From Kofleriaceae bacterium (lineage in GTDB: Bacteria; Myxococcota_A; Polyangia; Haliangiales; Haliangiaceae): a DNA stretch of 28,387 bases. Positions 2 to 22,044 of this stretch are shown piece after piece. The DNA lies in the NCBI GenBank assembly GCA_046597055.1, contig JBKJLC010000169.1, positions 1 through 28,387 of the forward strand, given 5' to 3'. How positions within the stretch are numbered: position 1 is the stretch's first letter; the number at the start of each line of letters is the position of its first letter. A program made the translations under genes and the position numbers. The notes beneath the pieces were generated by a model. That model was not told the DNA's origin, made no database searches, and worked only from the letters and a program-made list of their open reading frames with translations.

Positions 2-907
<906 letters not shown>

Positions 908-947
908 TCAGTCCACGCAGGCCTGAACGGGCCTGTCGGATCGAACG

Positions 948-985
948 CGCACGGGCGGCCCGCCAGGCCGCCCGTGCGGCGTTTC
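948..985 (+). terminator. Stem-loop / probable intrinsic terminator after groEL
   Basis: Perfect 13-bp inverted repeat CGCACGGGCGGCC (948-960) / GGCCGCCCGTGCG (966-978) with a 5-nt loop, followed by GCGTTTC (short U-tract). Confidence 0.7.
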
Positions 986-1046
986 GGACGCGCACACCGG
1001 CGAAAGGCCGCGCTCGTGCCTCGGCGCACGTGCTAGGTACTAGGCG

Positions 1047-2288
1047 ATGGTCCCCGGCCTGCTCGACGGCGTCGCATGCCTGATCGTCGAGGACGATCTG
1101 GACAGCCGGGAGCTGTTCGCCGAGAGCCTCGAGCTGTACGGCGCGGCCGTCCGCACCGCCACTGGCGGCCATGACGCGCTCGCCGTTCTCGAGGCGTGGC
1201 AGCCCGACGTCGTGCTGTGCGACCTCGGGCTGCCCGACATGGATGGGTACACCTTGCTCGGCCTGGTCCGGGCCCGACCGGGCGGCGCCGGCATCGGCGC
1301 GATCGCGCTGACCGGCCACGGCCGCGAGGTCGACCGCGCGGCCTCGCTGGAGGCCGGCTTCGCGAAGCACCTGGTCAAGCCGTTCCGCATGGCCGACGTC
1401 GTCAGCGCGATCGACGCGGTCCGGCCCCCGAAGCCCAGCCCGCTCGACGCGCAGACCCAGGTGCGGTCGGTCCTGGCGCAGCTCGACGGCGCCTCGCCGT
1501 GCCGGTTCACGTCGCTGCTGCGGTTTGCCGAGGACGACACGCTGCTCAGCCTCTGGACCTACGATCGCGCGCACCCCGACGTCGATCCGTTCCCGCTGGG
1601 GCTGCCGGTCCACGCGTCGTACTGCGTGCTCGTCCGCGAGTCGGGAGAAGCCTGTGCGATCGAGGACGCGCAGGTGGATCCGCGGGCCGCGGCCCATCCC
1701 AAGCGCGACGAGCTCGCCTGCTACGTCGGCGCGCCCCTGTTCGGCCGTGATGGCGCGATGTTCGGGACCGTCTGCGTCTACGACGAGCATGCCCAGGTCA
1801 TCGCGCCCGAGGTCCGTCAGGCGGTCGAGGCGGCGGCCCGGCAGCTCGAGTCGCTGTTGTACGCGCTGTTCGACGACCCGGCGATCGTGGGCGGTCCCGG
1901 GCCGGCGCCGGTGGACGCATCCGGCGCACTCGCACCGACCCGCGCGCGCCCCGTGCTGCCGACGACGCTGCCGGTCGTTCCCCCCGCCGGGACGCCGCGG
2001 ACCGACGCGTGGACCGTCAAGGTGCGCATGGCCGCGTCGGGCCCCGGCTGGCGCTTCGCGGTGCGCTGGCGGTCGGCCGACGCAGCCTGGGCCACGATCG
2101 AGGCCACGGTCAGCGTGGCGGCGACGGCGACCCCGGTCGAGCTGTGGGCCGCGATCGTCGAGGCCGCCGAGCCCGAGCTCACCCTCCCGGCCCAGGCGCC
2201 CGCCGGCACGGGACCGGTCAACGCCGATGCCGGGGGCTGGTCGTGGGGCTGGCCGGCGCGGCCGCAGCGCTCGACGTCGGCCCCCTGA
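1047..2288 (+). CDS. Response-regulator receiver + GAF domain protein with a Pro-rich linker and an unrecognised C-terminal domain
   Basis: REC motifs LIVEDD, CDLGLPDMDG, ALTG, VKP. GAF motifs SYCVLV, YVGAPL, GTVCVYD. The C-terminal ~130 aa are unassigned. Confidence 0.85.
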   Translation: MVPGLLDGVACLIVEDDLDSRELFAESLELYGAAVRTATGGHDALAVLEAWQPDVVLCDLGLPDMDGYTLLGLVRARPGGAGIGAIALTGHGREVDRAASLEAGFAKHLVKPFRMADVVSAIDAVRPPKPSPLDAQTQVRSVLAQLDGASPCRFTSLLRFAEDDTLLSLWTYDRAHPDVDPFPLGLPVHASYCVLVRESGEACAIEDAQVDPRAAAHPKRDELACYVGAPLFGRDGAMFGTVCVYDEHAQVIAPEVRQAVEAAARQLESLLYALFDDPAIVGGPGPAPVDASGALAPTRARPVLPTTLPVVPPAGTPRTDAWTVKVRMAASGPGWRFAVRWRSADAAWATIEATVSVAATATPVELWAAIVEAAEPELTLPAQAPAGTGPVNADAGGWSWGWPARPQRSTSAP

Positions 2289-2336
2289 ATCGACCGGTCG
2301 ACGCGCACGCGCGATCGGCCGTGCTACCACCCCGAC

Positions 2337-3434
2337 GTGAACGCGCTCGCGGCGGCCATCGTCGCCCACTACCGCCGCCACCGGCGCGACCTGCCGTGGC
2401 GACGGACCCGGGACGCCTACGCGATCTGGGTGTCGGAGATCATGCTGCAGCAGACCCGGGTCGCGACCGTGATCCCGTACTGGGAGCGGTGGATGGCGAG
2501 GTTCCCGACGGTGGCGGCGCTGGCGGCGGCGCCGCTCGACGACGTGCTCGCCGCGTGGGCCGGGCTCGGCTACTACTCGCGCGCGCGTAACCTGCACCGG
2601 GGCGCGCAGTGGGTGGTCGCCCACGGCGGCCTGCCGCGCGGCGCCGCCGAGCTGCGCGCGGTGCCCGGCGTCGGCGCGTACACCGCCGGCGCGATCGCGT
2701 CGATCGCGTGGGGCGAGCGGGCGCCGCTGGTCGACGGCAACGTGGCCCGGGTGCTGGCGCGGGTGTTCGCGATCGAGGACGACGTGAGGACGACCGCGGG
2801 CCAGAAGCGGCTCTGGGCGCTCGCCGGCGAGCTGATGACCGCGCTCGCGCCGAGCACCGACCCGGGCGCGCTCAACCAGGGGTTGATGGAGCTGGGCGCC
2901 ACCGTGTGCACGCCGTCGTCGCCGACCTGCCTCACCTGTCCGATTGCCGGACAGTGTGCGGCGCGCGCCAGCGGGCGTCAGGACCAGCTACCGAGGCTGC
3001 CGGCGCGGCGCCGCGCGGACGAGCTGCCCGAGCTGGCCGCGGTCGCGCTGTGGATCGAGCGGCGCGGCCGCGTGGTGGTCGCGCGCCGGCCGGCGGCCGG
3101 GCTCTACGGCGGCCTGTGGGAGCTGCCGCAGGCCGACGACGCGCCCGCGGCCGCGCGTGCGGTCGGGGTGACGCTGACCGGTGCGCCCCGCCCGCTCGGT
3201 GAGCACCGCCAGACGCTGACCCACCGGCGCCTGCACCTGCGGCTGATGCGCGCGGCCGTCCGGGGGGTGCCGACGGTCGTGGCCGGCGACGGCTACCAGG
3301 CCGTGCAGTGGGTCGCGATCGCCGACCTGACCAGGCTCGGCGTCTCCAGCGCGACCGCCGCGCTGGCCCGGCTGGCCGGACCCGAGGCCGCGGTGCCGGC
3401 ACGAACGCTTGGCAAGCGGCGGCGTCCGGGATAA
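2337..3434 (+). CDS. mutY: A/G-specific adenine glycosylase MutY
   Basis: RDLPWRR, WVSEIMLQQTRV, WAGLGYYSRARNL, HhH motif PGVGAYTAGAI, VDGNVARV, [4Fe-4S] motif C-X6-C-X2-C-X5-C, and a C-terminal NUDIX-like domain (GLYGGLWELP). GTG start. Confidence 0.97.
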   Translation: MNALAAAIVAHYRRHRRDLPWRRTRDAYAIWVSEIMLQQTRVATVIPYWERWMARFPTVAALAAAPLDDVLAAWAGLGYYSRARNLHRGAQWVVAHGGLPRGAAELRAVPGVGAYTAGAIASIAWGERAPLVDGNVARVLARVFAIEDDVRTTAGQKRLWALAGELMTALAPSTDPGALNQGLMELGATVCTPSSPTCLTCPIAGQCAARASGRQDQLPRLPARRRADELPELAAVALWIERRGRVVVARRPAAGLYGGLWELPQADDAPAAARAVGVTLTGAPRPLGEHRQTLTHRRLHLRLMRAAVRGVPTVVAGDGYQAVQWVAIADLTRLGVSSATAALARLAGPEAAVPARTLGKRRRPG

Positions 3435-3443
3435 AGCTCGCCG

Positions 3444-4046
3444 ATGGATCTTGATCCCAAGGCACTCGAGCTGTTCCGCGCGGGATACGACAAGATCGTC
3501 GAGGGCCTCGCCGTCCTCGGCTACGACACGTCCGACGAGAACTTCGAGGGCACCGCGGCGCGCGCCGCGAAGGGCTTCCACGAGATGGTGCTGTCGAACC
3601 ACGGCGCGAAGACGGAGATCGCGGCGCTGCTGGCCAAGACCTTCCCGGCTCGCTACGGCGAGATGGTGATCTCGAAGCACAACACCGCGTTCGGCGTGTG
3701 CCCGCACCACCTGCTGCCGGTCGCGTACAAGATCTCGGTCGCGTACATCCCGACCCGCAAGGTGCTCGGGCTGTCGAAGATGTCGCGCCTGGTCCGGCTG
3801 ATGGCGCGCGGGCCGCGCCTGCAGGAAGAGCTGACCCACGAGCTGGCGGAGATCATGCACGGGCAGCTCGACAGCCAAGGGTCGGCCGTCTACATCGAGG
3901 GCCTGCACATGTGCATGGCGGCGCGTGGCGTCGGCGCCCACGAGGCGCGCCTGGTCACCAGCGCCGTGCGCGGCGTGTTCCTCGAGCTCGCGACCCGCGA
4001 GGAGTTCATCAAGCTGGTGACGACGCCCCAGACCGGCATCCTGTAG
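3444..4046 (+). CDS. folE: GTP cyclohydrolase I (type IA), divergent variant
   Basis: Zn-ligand motif CPHHLLP, VAYIP, VLGLSK, LQEELT, HMCMAARGV and TSAVRG. Confidence 0.92.
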   Translation: MDLDPKALELFRAGYDKIVEGLAVLGYDTSDENFEGTAARAAKGFHEMVLSNHGAKTEIAALLAKTFPARYGEMVISKHNTAFGVCPHHLLPVAYKISVAYIPTRKVLGLSKMSRLVRLMARGPRLQEELTHELAEIMHGQLDSQGSAVYIEGLHMCMAARGVGAHEARLVTSAVRGVFLELATREEFIKLVTTPQTGIL

Positions 4047-4068: not shown

Positions 4069-5166
4069 TCAGATCCGGTAGTGGAGCTGGAGCATGCTGA
4101 AGCCGGAGCGGTCGCCACCGCCGCCGAGGCCGATGAGCTGGAGGCGGCTCATCAAGATCAGCTCGACGTGCGAGTGCGGGAACCAGTGGACGTTGAGGTC
4201 GGCGGCGTCGCGGTCGAGCTTGGCGATCGCGAGGTCCGCGTCGAAGTGGCCGAGGCCGAGATCGACGAACAGGCCCGGGCGCACGAAGTAGGTGGCGAGC
4301 ACCTGGCCGACCAGCTGGGTGCGGCCGGGCGCGGCCATGACCTCGAAGCTCTGGCGCACGACCTGCGCCTCGGCCTGCAGGAGCAGGCCCGGCCCGTCGA
4401 GCCAGAGCTTGCCGGTCAGGCCGCCGTGGATGCGCGCGTCGTGGTCGGACTTGGCGTAGCGGGCCTCGGCCCCGATCGCGGCGCGACCCATCCGGCGCTC
4501 GAGGTAGGCGGCAGCGCCATCGCCCTTCTCGGCGCCGTCGACCAGCGCGTCGTGCAGGAACGCGGTGAGGTGGGCCTCGAACCCGGCCGACAACCAGCCG
4601 GCATTGACGCCGTAGGCCTCGGCGAACAACGGGGTGCCGCCGTGGCGGCGGTTGTAGAACGGGTGCTCGGCCTGGCGCAGGCCGAACACCGGCATGAAGC
4701 GACCGGCGCGCACGTAGGGGCCGTCGCCGCCGTCCTCGGGCTTCCACATGAGCCAGTGCTCGCGGAACCACGGCACCGGGCCGCCGTTCTCGGTCGCGAT
4801 GCCCGCGGTCGCGTAGGCGCTGACCGCGCCCCTGGCGACGTGGCCGTAGAGCTCGCTCTGCATGGGAAACGCGGCAAACGCGGGGCCGGCGCCGCGATCG
4901 TGGGGGCCGGCCGCGAGGCGGATATCGCCGCCGAGGTGGAGCCAGTCGGGCAGCTCGACGGCGCCGTGCAGGAACGACGGATCGCCGCCCCACTGGGATT
5001 CGTCCTCGGCGGTGAGCTCGCCCATGCCGGCGAGCAGGCCGCCACCGGCGGGCGCGACGTGACAGCTGGCGCAGGTCTGCTCGTGCGAGAGCTGATACTG
5101 CGGGTAGGCGTCGGCGACCCCGGCGGTCGCGGCCAGGACGCCGAGCGTGACCAGGACGGTCCGCAT
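4069..5166 (-). CDS. Cyc2-like outer-membrane monoheme cytochrome c / beta-barrel porin fusion (365 aa)
   Basis: The start is re-assigned to the ATG at 5166, which overlaps the upstream stop (TGATG). Sec signal MRTVLVTLGVLAATAGVADA (AxA), then YPQYQ...CASCH close to the mature N-terminus. Amphipathic beta-strands follow (YVRAGRFMPVFG, LFVDLGLGHF, LNVHWFP), ending in a beta-signal-like MLQLHYRI. Confidence 0.8.
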   Translation of the reverse strand: MRTVLVTLGVLAATAGVADAYPQYQLSHEQTCASCHVAPAGGGLLAGMGELTAEDESQWGGDPSFLHGAVELPDWLHLGGDIRLAAGPHDRGAGPAFAAFPMQSELYGHVARGAVSAYATAGIATENGGPVPWFREHWLMWKPEDGGDGPYVRAGRFMPVFGLRQAEHPFYNRRHGGTPLFAEAYGVNAGWLSAGFEAHLTAFLHDALVDGAEKGDGAAAYLERRMGRAAIGAEARYAKSDHDARIHGGLTGKLWLDGPGLLLQAEAQVVRQSFEVMAAPGRTQLVGQVLATYFVRPGLFVDLGLGHFDADLAIAKLDRDAADLNVHWFPHSHVELILMSRLQLIGLGGGGDRSGFSMLQLHYRI

Positions 5167-5555
5167 CAGTTGTTCTCCGCCCCGGCGGTCAGCCAGCGCG
5201 CGATCAGCGCGATGTCCGCGTCGGGCAGCGGCGCGTCGAGCGGCATCCGGGGGGTCCCCTCGTTCGTGTCCGAGGTGATGACGACGTACAGCGAAGACTG
5301 CTCCGGCTCGCCCTCGCAACCGGAGCTGGCGCAGGCCCCGAGCCGATTGTCGTCCAGCAGGGTCCGGTACGCGTCCTGCGGTGTGTCGAGGATCAGCGCC
5401 TCGGCGCGGTTCTGGGCGCTATGACAGGCCGCGGTCCCGCACGAGGGCTGCAGGATGGCAGTGGTGATGTACGCGAAGCTCACCGGGCGGTCGTCGGTCG
5501 TGACGCCGCACCCGCTGGCAGCGAGGAGGAGCAACAGTACGGCAACGTTCCTCAT
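5166..5555 (-). CDS. Lipoprotein c-type cytochrome with atypical CX4CH motif (planctomycete cytochrome c-like fold), 129 aa
   Basis: Start at ATG 5555. Lipobox LAASG-C, heme motif CGTAACH, PEQSSLY, candidate distal Met in RMP, and C-terminal LPDADIALIARWLTAGA typical of class I / PSCyt1-like cytochromes. Confidence 0.8.
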   Translation of the reverse strand: MRNVAVLLLLLAASGCGVTTDDRPVSFAYITTAILQPSCGTAACHSAQNRAEALILDTPQDAYRTLLDDNRLGACASSGCEGEPEQSSLYVVITSDTNEGTPRMPLDAPLPDADIALIARWLTAGAENN

Positions 5556-5649: not shown

Positions 5650-6051
5650 ATGGAACTGTTCCGCAAGTTCGCCCACAAGGCCTCCGAGGCGGTCGGCTCG
5701 GCCTACGCGTTCATGGCCGCGGTGACGTTGCTGGTGGCCTGGCTCGCCACCGGCCCGCTGTTCCATTTCTCCGACACCTGGCAGCTGTTCATCAACACGA
5801 CGACGACGATCATCACGTTCGTGATGGTGTTCCTCATTCAGAACGCCCAGAACCGCGACGGCCGTGGCATCCACCTCAAGCTCGACGAGCTGATCCGCGC
5901 GACCACCGGCGCGCGCAACAGCATGATCGACCTGAGCGCGCTGTCCGATCAGAAGCTGCGCGCGCTCGAGCGCCAGTACCAGCGGCTGTGCGACCTGCCC
6001 GACCACGAGGCGGAGGCCGAGAGCAAGACCCACCACGCCGTCCGGCTGTGA
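5650..6051 (+). CDS. Low-affinity iron permease family (Fet4-like) small membrane protein
   Basis: Family motifs GPLFHFSDTWQLFINTTTTIITFVMVFLIQNAQNRD and IHLKLDELIRA..GARN. Two hydrophobic segments. Confidence 0.9.
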   Translation: MELFRKFAHKASEAVGSAYAFMAAVTLLVAWLATGPLFHFSDTWQLFINTTTTIITFVMVFLIQNAQNRDGRGIHLKLDELIRATTGARNSMIDLSALSDQKLRALERQYQRLCDLPDHEAEAESKTHHAVRL

Positions 6052-18528: not shown

Positions 18529-19953
18529 TCAGCGGGTGGTGAGGGGGCCCTGCGAGACCGCGCCGGCCAGCACCGCCATCGACGTGCTGACCTGGCCGCT
18601 GCGCGAGTTGATCCGGATCCGGCCCAGGCCGCCGCCGCCTCCCCCGGTGCCATCGACGTTGCCGCCCCCGGCACCCGCGGCGCTCGCGGCGAACGCCCCG
18701 GGGCCACCGTTGCCGGCGCCGCCGGGATCGCCGAGGCCCCCGGCCGCCGGCCCGATCCCGTTGCCCCAGGTGCCATCGCGCTCGTTCAGCGCACCCGCCG
18801 GCGACGCCACCCGGCCGCCGCCGCCGCCGCCGCCGCTCGCGATCAGCGACGCCCCGCCCAGGGACACCATGGGCGCTTCGAGCAGGACCGCGCCGCCCGC
18901 CCCGCCGCCGCCGCCGCCCCGGTTGGTGACCGTGGTGCCCTTGGCCCCGGCACCGCCGGCGTAGATCTCGGCGTTGTCGCCGAGCTGGATGCTGACCAGG
19001 GACGTGAGCTGGAGCCCGCCGCCGCCGCCGCCGCCATAGCTGCCGCCGTTGGGCGCACCGGCGCCACCGCCCGAGCCCCCGCGCAGTGGCTCGAGCGTGG
19101 CCGGCGCGCAGGTCGTGATCGCCGTCGGCATCGCCGCCGGCTTGGTCGCGGTGCCGCCGCCGGGACCGCCCGCGGTCGCCATGCCACCGCCGGCCCCACC
19201 GTTCTCGTCGCCGCCGTTGCTGCCGCCACCACCACCCGCGCAGCCGGTGCCGGCGGAACCGCTGGAGCCGCCGCTGCCGGCCCCGGGCCCGCCGCAGCGG
19301 CGGCTGGTGCCGAACATGGTGCCGCTCGCCGTGCAGATCCCGGGCATGAAGTCGATGGTGCCGTCGATCTCCACCGTGCTGGCCGCCAGGATGATCAGCG
19401 CGCGACTGCCGTGGCCGACCAGGGTGGCGTCGGCCGGCAGCGCCAGTGACGCGACGCCGAGCACCGCGGTGCCGTCATCGACCCGCCGGAACGAGATGCC
19501 GGCGTCGACGCCGATGGTGCCGGGGCGCAGCACGACCCGAACGTCGGCGTTCCCGCTGTTGTCGATGTAGTAGAGCTCGCCGGTGTCGGTGTCGACGTAG
19601 TGGCGCTCGGCCGCCACGAACGCGACCGTGCCGGTGACCCCGACCAGATCCGCGAGCCCGGCCAGGTTCGACGGATCGAGGCTGGCGCAGTGCGGCGCGC
19701 TGGTGGGTAGGCAGCCCAGCTCGCACGGCGTCACGACCGCCTGATCGCCGTCGCAGGTGACCAGGGCACCCGCGGCGTTGCAGCCGGCGACGCAGGCCTC
19801 GGCCGCGTCGGGCAGGCCCGGGGCCGCGTCAGGATCGAGGGCGTCGGAGTCCACGCCGCCATCACCGTCATCGGCCAGTTGCCCGGGGGTGAAGGCGCAG
19901 GCGACCAGCGTGAGCGCACTCATGACTCCGAGCGCGGCGCCGTACATGCCCAT
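18529..19953 (-). CDS. Glycine-rich putative lipoprotein / surface protein
   Basis: Lipobox-like LVA-C, a Cys-rich module (CVAGC...C...PCELGC...C), and many poly-Gly tracts alternating with beta-strands. The start is ATG 19953 or 19947. Confidence 0.8.
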
Positions 19954-20004
19954 CCGGTGATTCAAGCAAGCTTCGTAGCCCGGGTCCATGGCAACCTGCC
20001 GGCA

Positions 20005-22044
20005 GTGTCGGATCCCGCCATTGTCCTTCCGCCCCGGTACGGCTCGCTCGGACGGGTCCTTCACGTTGACCTGACCACGTCGACGCACCGGGTCGAGGAG
20101 GTCGACGAGTCGGTCTTCCGCCAGTTTCTCGGCGGCTACGGCCTGGGCGCGTGGCTCATGTGGAAACACTTCCCGCCCGGCACCGACGCGCTCGCGCCCG
20201 AGGCCTGCTTCGTCATCTGCTCGGGCCTCCTCACCGGCACCGGCACGCCGTTCTCAGGCCGCATCCAGATCGCCGGCAAGTCGCCGCTGACCGGGACCTG
20301 GGCCGACTCCAACTCGGGCGGCTCGGTCGCCTCGCACCTGCGTCGCGCCGGCTACGACGCGCTGGTCGTCGTGGGCAAGGCGCCGACCCCGACCCTCCTC
20401 GTGATCCAGGACGACGAGGTCAGGTTCGAGCCAGCCGACGACCTGTGGGGCCAGCAGATCCCGCCGGTGTTCGACGAGCTCAAGCGCCGCTACGGCGGAC
20501 GTCGCGACGTCGGGGTCAGCGCGATCGGCCCCGCCGGCGAGCGCCAGGCCCGCATCGCCTCGGTGATGAACGACCGTTACCACGCGTTCGGCCGTCAGGG
20601 CTTCGGCGCGATCTACGGGGCCAAGCAGCTCAAGGCGATCGTGGTCGGTGGCTCGGGCGAGGTGCCGATCGCGCGGCCCAAGGAGTGGAAGGCGGTCTGC
20701 AAGCAGATCAACGACGAGTACCGGACCTCGATCGGCTTCTTCATGCGGCTCATGGTGTGGATGGCCAAGCCCAAGAGCTGGCTGGCCTGGATGTACCGGA
20801 TGTTTCCCAAGCGGCGCCTGAAGATCCAGGCGCCGACCGCGGCGATGCGCCAGCTGTGGTCCGATCGCGGCACCACCGGCGCGGTCAGCCTGTCGATCGA
20901 GAACGGCGACGCCCCGGTCAAGAACTGGAAGGGCGTCGGCAGCCGCGACTTCGGCATGAGCAAGCACGGCCACAAGCTCGACGGCAAAGAGGTCGACAAG
21001 TACATCACGAAGAAGCTGTCGTGCGGCGACTGCCCGGCGCCGTGCAAGGGCATCGTGAGGGTGAAGAGCAAGGGCCTGACCGATGTCCGGCGCCCGGACT
21101 ACGAGACGATCTGCGGCTTCGGCGCCAACCTCCTCAACGACGATCTCGAGCTGGTGACCGCCTGCCACGATGCTTGCAACCGCTACGGCATGGACGCGGT
21201 CAGCTCGTCGGCGACCCTGGGCTGGGTGTGCGAGGCGGTCGAGCAGGGGATGCTCACCACCGCCGACCTCGACGGGGTCGACATGCGCTGGGGCAACGGC
21301 GAGGCCGCGCTCGCGCTGACCATCAAGATGGGCGAGGGTGACGGCTGCGGGGCGTGGCTCGCCCAGGGCGTGCAACGGGCCGCCGCACATGTCGGCAAGG
21401 GCAGCGCCGCGTTCGCGGTCCACGTCCACGGCTCCGAGCCGGCGTATCACGATCCGCGGTTCACCTCGCTGATGGGCGTGACCTACATCGCCGATCCGAC
21501 GCCGGGCCGCCACACCGCAGGGTCGGCGTCGTGGAACGAGACGTTCGGCTTCTCGTTTTCGCTGCCGAAGGCGGCGCCCAAGAGCGAGACGGTGGTGTCG
21601 TGGAAGGGCACCGAGGGCAAGGGCCGGGCCCAGGCCCACCACTCCAACGCGCACCAGGCGATGAACGGCCTCGGCCTGTGCATGTTCACGCTGATCACCG
21701 GCACGCTGCCCTGGCTCGAGCTGACCACCACGGTCACGGGCTGGGACATCAGCGAGAAGGATCTGCTCGAGGCCGGCGAGCGCATCCAGGATCTGCGGGC
21801 CGCGTTCAACTGGCGCGAGGGCATCCGTCCGACCGACTTCACCGCCCACCCGCGCATGATGGGCGAGGGCGACGGCAACCTGGCGGCGGGCCCGCTCAAG
21901 GGCATCCGGGTGCCGCTGCCGATGCTGCGCGACGACTACTTCACCGCGATGCGGTGGAACCCGCAGACCGGGCGGCTGGCGCGCGCGCGCGCGACCGAGC
22001 TCGGCATCGCCGAGCTGCTCGGCGACTACGTCGACCGCGGGTGA
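20005..22044 (+). CDS. aor: Aldehyde:ferredoxin oxidoreductase family (W/Mo-bis-pterin) enzyme
   Basis: [39 protein letters not shown], [4Fe-4S] CGDCPAPC plus GLC, PDYET, NRYGMD, GERI...FNWREG. In-frame GTG start at 20005. Confidence 0.93.

Follow-up and report, generated by a model that had tools for sequence, protein, structure and literature searches.

The window, by which we mean the whole analyzed stretch of 28,387 nucleotides, carries two adjoining genes on its minus strand, at 5555-5166 (gene 1, 129 amino acids) and 5166-4069 (gene 2, 365 amino acids). The first-pass annotation, made from the letters alone, had read them as translationally coupled, and the stop codon of gene 1 does overlap the start codon of gene 2 in a TGATG at 5168-5164. 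The features of the pair are as follows.

5166..5555, minus strand: gene 1, 129-amino-acid lipoprotein; predicted monoheme cytochrome c, PSCyt1/FoxE-like, and predicted extracellular lid
5508..5555, minus strand: lipoprotein signal peptide, its last residue being the lipobox Cys16 (sequence; Cys16 in 25/25)
5421..5441, minus strand: CX4CH putative heme-attachment motif, residues 39-45 of the lipoprotein (25/25 aligned members)
5244..5246, minus strand: Met104 within Arg-Met-Pro, a candidate for the distal ligand of the lipoprotein heme (invariant; aligns with the RMP of FoxE)
5164..5168, minus strand: TGATG overlap, TGA of gene 1 and ATG of gene 2 (sequence)
4069..5166, minus strand: gene 2, predicted cytochrome-porin fusion, 365 amino acids (open reading frame and structure model)
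5107..5166, minus strand: predicted Sec signal peptide, residues 1-20, AxA followed by Tyr-Pro (sequence and conservation)
4942..5106, minus strand: putative N-terminal heme plug, residues 21-75, with CxxCH (5073-5059) and PxGGG (motif, conservation and model)
4072..4941, minus strand: residues 76-365, predicted OprO/P-like beta-barrel of 16 strands whose loop 3 is long (model and fold match)
4861..4863, minus strand: Met102 in the middle of strand 2, where it may be the distal ligand of the plug heme (conservation and strand position; the ligand role is inferred)

The motifs that had been picked out by eye were all located: CGTAACH and the Met of Arg-Met-Pro in the lipoprotein, and YPQYQ, PAGGGLL and the terminal LQLHYRI in gene 2. 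The lipoprotein motif is a noncanonical CX4CH and not a CxxCH. The CASCH of gene 2 had been placed about 13 residues into the mature chain; the motif is present, with its first Cys at residue 12 of the predicted mature chain, and the barrel that had been estimated at about 300 amino acids measures about 290 (residues 76-364). The signal peptide of gene 2 was judged from the sequence by eye, and its cleavage was placed after Ala20 from the AxA-YP pattern, around which A18, A20 and Y21 are at least 90% conserved and P22 is invariant. An upstream TTG start for gene 2 (416 amino acids) was rejected because it overlaps gene 1 and the homologs start at the ATG. GC3 was 0.92 for gene 1 and 0.95 for gene 2, and the neighboring genes are alike in this respect. 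One sequencing run, possibly the source of the window, spans the stretch in one piece with 0 differing letters, and a second run from the same study covers most of it with 0 differences. A search for promoter- or terminator-like sites found none.

Genomic neighborhood and host genome

A low-affinity iron permease gene (PF04120) lies at 5650-6051 (+), divergent from the pair. A link to iron uptake through this neighbor was considered and rejected, since the two are adjacent in only 1/53 loci, many of which have 1.5-kb flanks. On the other side, positions 71-4046 (+) hold a GroEL C-terminus (read from the sequence), a response-regulator protein, a MutY-type glycosylase and GTP cyclohydrolase I. 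These genes are convergent with the pair, meeting it at its 3′ end, and GTP cyclohydrolase I is adjacent in 8/53 loci. No additional neighbor was conserved in more than 8/53 loci, and no periplasmic or inner-membrane partner and no signaling gene was conserved beside the pair in the 53 loci, many with flanks of only 1.5 kb. Farther along the window, an open reading frame at 19879-22044 (+) has a translation that we take to resemble aldehyde:ferredoxin oxidoreductase.

The genome of the window has genes for cytochrome c maturation, which were read as Ccm, as well as those for ACIII with a caa3-type oxidase and a cbb3-type oxidase (identities from sequence and gene order). It contains about 90 CxxCH-bearing open reading frames, one of which (G000:C27:4186-7698) has 26 CxxCH motifs. 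RuBisCO was not found in this 94%-complete genome.

Gene 2: predicted barrel, plug and candidate heme ligands

The AlphaFold2 model of gene 2, built with 94 homologs, had a pLDDT of 90.5 and a pTM of 0.85. In it, an N-terminal plug of 55 residues precedes a barrel of 16 strands, whose loop 3 is 26 residues long. Its best fold match was OprP (2o4v; Z 24.0, rmsd 3.1, 287 aligned residues), with PorB tied within 1 Z unit. The cytochrome-porin architecture proposed at first reading is borne out by the model, an OprP-like 16-strand barrel with an N-terminal CxxCH plug. Pfam gave no match for gene 2 or for any of the aligned members (94/94), NCBIfam returned no family match for it, and a PDB sequence search found no relative of the barrel. 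An Atlas search with the homolog P0023 as the query returned 30 Myxococcota clusters, the nearest named being Porin_O_P (12% of members).

The CxxCH is conserved among homologs: the motif is present in 120/120 top homologs and in 86/88 profile matches of at least 330 amino acids, and of the two misses, one starts at a conserved Met-Gln and is without the N-terminus, and the other looks frameshifted. The plug motif is therefore more than a chance occurrence. The mean conservation of the plug (residues 21-75) was 0.70; the His that follows the second Cys of its motif and a Met downstream are invariant, and Arg, Asp, Glu and His residues in the barrel lumen are conserved in the family. In an alignment of 155 members, which were selected on the heme motif (PxG-type pattern), Met102 occurs in 150, His168 in 152 and His362 in 150. 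From these positions, Met102 is a candidate sixth ligand of the plug heme, with His168 in loop 3 and His362 as alternative candidates.

Gene 1: the lipoprotein partner

In 25 aligned lipoproteins, Cys16, the CX4CH and the Arg-Met-Pro are invariant and W121 is conserved. The CX4CH was found in 49/50 distinct partner lipoproteins, and the remaining one ends at a contig edge. The lipoprotein has the elements of a PSCyt1-type protein, namely, a heme motif (as the CX4CH variant), a downstream Met-Pro and a C-terminal Trp helix. Pfam PSCyt1 (PF07635) matched 13/25 aligned lipoproteins at an E value of at most 0.1 (best 5.6e-8), and the window protein was without a match. The best match of the lipoprotein profile in the PDB was FoxE, which was weak (E 0.0013) and aligned the RMP motifs of the two. 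FoxE (PDB 5MAB) was also the best fold match, again a weak one (Z 6.3, rmsd 6.3, 111 aligned residues), and Foldseek with the lipoprotein model returned nothing at an E value of at most 0.001. Searches with the single sequence gave weak, signal-peptide-level matches in NCBIfam and weak cytochrome c6 matches in the PDB. The hemes of FoxE carry distal Met ligands, according to the part of PMC10654088 available to us.

Predicted complex and position of the lipoprotein

When the barrel, the lipoprotein and two hemes were modeled together with ESMFold2, the complex scored 0.86, and the best of three controls scored 0.00. The 0.86 mark was reached by 116/157 solved complexes and 2/215 mismatched pairs, a calibration that is rough here, as our own alignments and heme were used. 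Between runs, at least 89% of contacts agree, and the partner pLDDT was at least 85. All 48 predicted barrel contacts are extracellular, 34 of them in the eight outer loops and 14 at the outer strand ends, and none (0/48) falls in the periplasmic turns or the plug; this sidedness assumes the standard topology with both barrel termini in the periplasm. The docking of the lipoprotein on the barrel that had been proposed for testing was thus predicted, at an extracellular rather than a periplasmic site.

In the lipoprotein, the 40 contact residues were more conserved (0.72) than the 69 others (0.48), and they are grouped around the heme motif and the Met. In the barrel, the interface loop residues were less conserved than the other loop residues (0.49 versus 0.68). 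Contacts of the lipoprotein begin four residues past the lipidated Cys, which implies a very short tether. Lidded barrels in general are known. Recall of a similar complex by the predictor is not evident, as the barrel has no solved relative by sequence; the model may nevertheless favor the only open mouth of the barrel.

Pairing, paralogs and distribution

The named homologs are almost all hypothetical proteins of Kofleriaceae (Myxococcota), which agrees with the earlier suggestion of a myxobacterial host and makes it a Kofleriaceae-type one. The genome of the window holds six paralogous pairs, with barrels that are 35-58% identical, and all six overlap at the gene junction. Contamination (7.55% for this genome) was rejected as the source of the six copies, since the paralogs have orthologs elsewhere and clean genomes hold 2-4 copies.

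Whether the pair is conserved across Myxococcota had been put forward as a check, and conserved pairing was found in the close clade. The lipoprotein gene lies directly upstream of the barrel gene in 52/53 close-clade loci (24/25 and 28/28), the other ending at a contig edge, and 50 distinct partner lipoproteins were seen across these loci. Both genes are near-universal in the order. Among its 121 genomes, a tally that takes in the unpublished G353 and G361, 112 had the barrel (cutoff E 1e-20) and 113 had the lipoprotein; neither gene was found in eight genomes, and one 80%-complete genome had the lipoprotein only, at a contig edge. Matches to the barrel profile, remoter relatives included, were present in 103/301 genomes of the phylum at the cutoff of E 0.001. 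A search with the barrel profile found 1,924 representatives at 50% clustering. The two gene trees show the same paralog clades, and a comparison of 23 pairs, from which two truncated loci were excluded, gave a Mantel r of 0.78, which 0/5000 permutations reached and which is inflated by kinship.

A few paralogs are accompanied by a third cytochrome gene, which is PSCyt1-like, P460-like or a small monoheme lipoprotein. Near one paralog group, a cytochrome P460-family lipoprotein with a CX3CH was observed (L007:7420-7887, also in L046 and L047). A further clade (P0220-P0291) has sequences starting FPEMVRHGY.

Distant Myxococcota relatives and exchange of the partner

The close and distant barrel clades align end to end with a probability of 100%. 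In 35 distant loci, a small monoheme gene lies downstream of the barrel gene in 28, a YceI gene upstream in 20 and both in 19. Of these monoheme partners, 27/28 end in a Cys, a hydrophobic stretch and basic residues, a pattern that is the anatomy of MYXO-CTERM; the MYXO-CTERM profile scored below its curated cutoff and matched only 2/7 scanned partner proteins at all. The available text of PMC11980579 describes the MYXO-CTERM tag as directing surface display. Judged from the sequences, the distant relatives appear mostly to swap the lipoprotein lid for a MYXO-CTERM-tailed monoheme protein (28/35 loci). The seven other distant loci mostly have mono- or diheme cytochrome neighbors, and three have a diheme plug. 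The barrel thus keeps a heme-motif partner while the fold of the partner changes, which independently favors a heme at the cell surface.

The three-gene module of YceI, cytochrome-porin and small monoheme protein was seen in L017-L040, L051-L056 and L060 (e.g., L056:1865-4445 and L031:784-3093). No YceI gene of this type was found beside window-type pairs. The small monoheme protein has DxDGDG repeats in addition to the MYXO-CTERM-like tail, and its heme peptide matched the barrel plug in a profile comparison (95.2%), with 69% of family windows above background. This suggests that the small monoheme protein is a free-standing form of the plug domain. In L027, L058 and L059, barrels with two-CxxCH plugs are preceded by PSCyt1-like lipoproteins, which in L058 and L059 have one CxxCH and one CX4CH each. 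A cultured host of the distant type is Chondromyces apiculatus, with CAP_2117.

Relation to Cyc2

The first-pass annotation had assigned gene 2 to a divergent lineage of Cyc2. A heme domain fused to a 16-strand barrel, with OprO/OprP as the template, is how Cyc2 is described in the accessible portion of 10.1101/228056. Several criteria of Cyc2 are present in gene 2, that is, a predicted signal peptide, a single N-terminal CXXCH and a predicted 16-strand OprO/P-like barrel, and its length of 365 residues is exactly the lower limit of FeGenie. However, the assignment to the Cyc2 lineage was not supported. The motif AXPXFAR[QK][TY] upstream of the CXXCH, reported to occur in Cyc2 alone, was found in 0/155 members; the window protein has AYPQYQLS, and 6 members have PxF[AS]. 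The PXL of Cyc2, four residues past the CXXCH, was likewise found in 0/155, with PxGGG instead in 149/155. This set was chosen on a similar pattern, and unselected homolog lists likewise show PxGGG. A profile of 56 motif-defined Cyc2 sequences gave no significant match to the window protein or its genome. These 56 were the complete ones of 119 found in 120 loci, a metagenome sample and not curated clusters. The best match of this profile in the family was L057 (E 2.4e-4), and a few distant members with PxF[AS] scored highest.

Profile-profile comparison with Cyc2 gave 94.3% (local) and 97.7% (global), and comparison with 30 heme-less OprO/P-type porins gave 97.2% and 98.7%. Because the heme-less porins score no lower, the barrel says nothing specific about Cyc2, and barrel similarity was rejected as proof of Cyc2 descent. 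The N-terminal heme peptide aligned in register with that of Cyc2 (95.4%). Against a background of 178 unrelated CxxCH windows, the family profile placed 57% of Cyc2 N-termini above the 95th percentile, and the reverse direction placed 18% there; an alignment of the lipoproteins was dropped as a control because, without a CxxCH, it was unfair. In these sequence comparisons, only the N-terminal heme peptide appears to show a specific likeness to Cyc2, and a weak one. The barrels in L029, L050 and L057 start PRF[AS], nearest to the Cyc2 motif, and are followed by diheme cytochrome c genes; they are possible intermediates. Taken together, the barrel family probably works like Cyc2 and would be a distant sister of it, not a member.

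Cyc2 homologs in organisms that do not oxidize iron are already reported in the accessible text of PMC5566968, and a Cyc2 tree in PMC12442345, as far as the available part goes, includes sequences labeled Deltaproteobacteria/Myxococcota. Our literature search returned no description of the pair or the family, members of which could be listed in the Keffer figshare files or in Table S2 of PMC5566968. The conserved pair is apparently an undescribed variant of the porin-cytochrome conduit.

Proposed function and alternatives

After weighing the structural models and the conservation data, we provide a putative mechanism, which we consider more likely than not to be correct: the barrel, plugged by its CxxCH domain, and the CX4CH lipoprotein on the extracellular mouth would form a two-heme wire across the outer membrane, in microbes for which no such electron transfer is known. 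Ccm would attach heme c to both proteins, where attachment to the CX4CH by this Ccm is an assumption; expression of Cyc2 in E. coli with Ccm has worked. The lumen would hold the plug heme, with His36 and probably Met102 or His168 as its ligands. The lipoprotein would be anchored in the outer leaflet so that the edge of its His45/Met104 heme faces the pore, and electrons would pass from the lid heme to the plug heme and on to a periplasmic carrier encoded elsewhere. With a plug heme at the periplasmic mouth, the distance to the lid could be too great. Of the two directions, uptake of electrons from reductants outside the cell into the aerobic chain (ACIII-caa3, cbb3) has a slight edge over outward flow to surface acceptors. 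By analogy, the likeness to Cyc2 and FoxE leans toward electron uptake, and the YceI linkage of the distant relatives leans toward quinol-fed outward flow or, following the available text of PMC9113575, toward an envelope peroxide defense. The pair likely serves heterotrophic myxobacteria in surface redox chemistry of a general kind rather than in iron lithotrophy.

Most outer-membrane lipoproteins face the periplasm, and the heme domain of Cyc2 is expected to be periplasmic and to feed periplasmic carriers. The lipoprotein might accordingly sit on the inner leaflet and take electrons from the plug heme, with a small substrate entering through the open outer mouth. A +7 Ala, given in the accessible text of PMC3222651 as a signal of M. 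xanthus extracellular-matrix lipoproteins, occurs in only 1/49 distinct lipoprotein homologs, which fits this arrangement. (Lys at +2, the reported inner-membrane signal, occurs in 0/49 distinct homologs.) However, no predicted barrel contact is periplasmic, the tether is very short, and the partner in the distant clade has a surface-sorting-like tail. We regard a periplasmic lipoprotein as unlikely.

Quite unlikely, in our judgment, is a redox-gated channel or a redox/ligand sensor, in which plug and lid would close an OprP-like pore under the control of the heme state, with no net electron flux. A barrel of the OprO/P type whose lumen holds conserved Arg, Asp, Glu and His would suit such a role, the six divergent paralogs (35-58% identity) suggest different specificities, and no electron-carrier partner is conserved nearby. 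In contrast, two heme motifs with candidate sixth ligands would point to electron transfer more than to ligand binding, the unrelated forms that the partner takes in different clades are heme-motif proteins, and signaling genes are not conserved beside the pair.

We give little credence to a true Cyc2-type Fe(II) oxidase serving an iron-based energy metabolism in these myxobacteria, and Fe(II) oxidation for growth is unlikely. The architecture and structural template are common to Cyc2, the lid resembles the iron oxidase FoxE, genes for ACIII, caa3 and cbb3 are present, and an iron permease gene adjoins the pair in the window. However, the protein is without the defining motif and escapes the Cyc2 profile, the gene is near-universal and multicopy in an order not known for iron oxidation, no RuBisCO was found in the 94%-complete genome, the permease is adjacent in a single locus of the 53, and ACIII-caa3 is common in myxobacteria. 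Finally, it is very improbable that the Cys motifs are disulfides or metal-ion sites of an ordinary lidded porin without heme: the CX4CH is noncanonical, neither window protein matches a Pfam cytochrome family, and the lipoprotein has a middling fold match with nothing from Foldseek, but both proteins have an invariant His following the second Cys and an invariant Met farther on, PSCyt1 matches about half of the aligned lipoproteins, and Ccm genes are present.

If the two-heme wire is correct, it would be the smallest of its kind, since the known electron routes across the outer membrane are large multiheme porin complexes or the lidless Cyc2. Its presence in 112/121 genomes of the order and 103/301 of the phylum would add an unrecognized surface-redox capacity to abundant heterotrophs. 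It would also caution that a cytochrome-porin fusion need not be an iron oxidase. We further offer, tentatively and with somewhat more doubt than conviction, that the pair belongs to a modular conduit family with a heme in a 16-strand barrel and an exchangeable surface heme lid, forming a core trait for extracellular electron transfer and a sister group that shows the origin of Cyc2. The lids would then be the CX4CH lipoprotein in this order and, in other classes, a MYXO-CTERM-anchored monoheme protein with a quinone-carrier-like YceI. Heterotrophs and predators that are common in soil would have extracellular electron exchange as a multicopy core trait, one that screens for Cyc2 and for multiheme proteins have probably overlooked, and the family together with the free-standing heme peptide would show how Cyc2 arose.

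Comparison with known systems

Cyc2 and Cyt572 of Acidithiobacillus, Zetaproteobacteria, Gallionellaceae and Leptospirillum resemble gene 2 in having a signal peptide, an x-P and a CxxCH ten residues past the Pro, an L-x-x-[FY]-G after the CxxCH, and a 16-strand barrel with OprO/OprP as the best template; Cyt572 additionally has the Tyr-Pro start after the AxA site. The present family differs from Cyc2 in that it is shorter (about 365 amino acids), its lumen has a conserved Met/His set, its heme-motif partner is obligate, co-encoded and predicted to lie outside, and its hosts are heterotrophic myxobacteria with several copies per genome.

The outer face of MtrCAB carries MtrC, a lipoprotein cytochrome at the cell surface. 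MtrCAB, MtoAB and PioAB share the working principle of a heme inside a barrel. However, these systems use 26-strand barrels with separate decaheme cytochromes, whereas the pair has two predicted hemes in total, one of them on a 16-strand barrel, and no sequence relationship between the pair and MtrCAB, MtoAB or PioAB was found.

The OprO/OprP phosphate-selective porins (PF07396) share the barrel fold (Z 24.0) and the remote profile match (97.2%). In contrast to gene 2, they have no heme plug (CxxCH in 0/30 controls), and the RRARL arginine ladder of OprO/P is replaced here by PMQxxL. With both the Pfam PF07396 match and the arginine ladder absent, gene 2 shares with OprO/P only the fold and the remote profile match.

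BcnA is, we assume, a YceI-type protein. In BcnA/LcoA, as far as the available text of PMC9113575 goes, a lipocalin gene is linked to a cytochrome b561 gene in an envelope redox defense, which may be compared with the YceI genes in 20/35 distant loci. The cytochrome here differs from LcoA in being a predicted outer-membrane c-type protein, and the window-type pairs are without YceI. FoxE and PSCyt1 resemble the lipoprotein in domain type and in the RMP Met, a weak similarity (E 0.0013; Z 6.3). FoxE, which the foxEYZ operon encodes, is described in the accessible part of PMC10654088 as a CxxCH protein with two hemes, whereas the lipoprotein studied here is a predicted monoheme CX4CH protein tied to a barrel.
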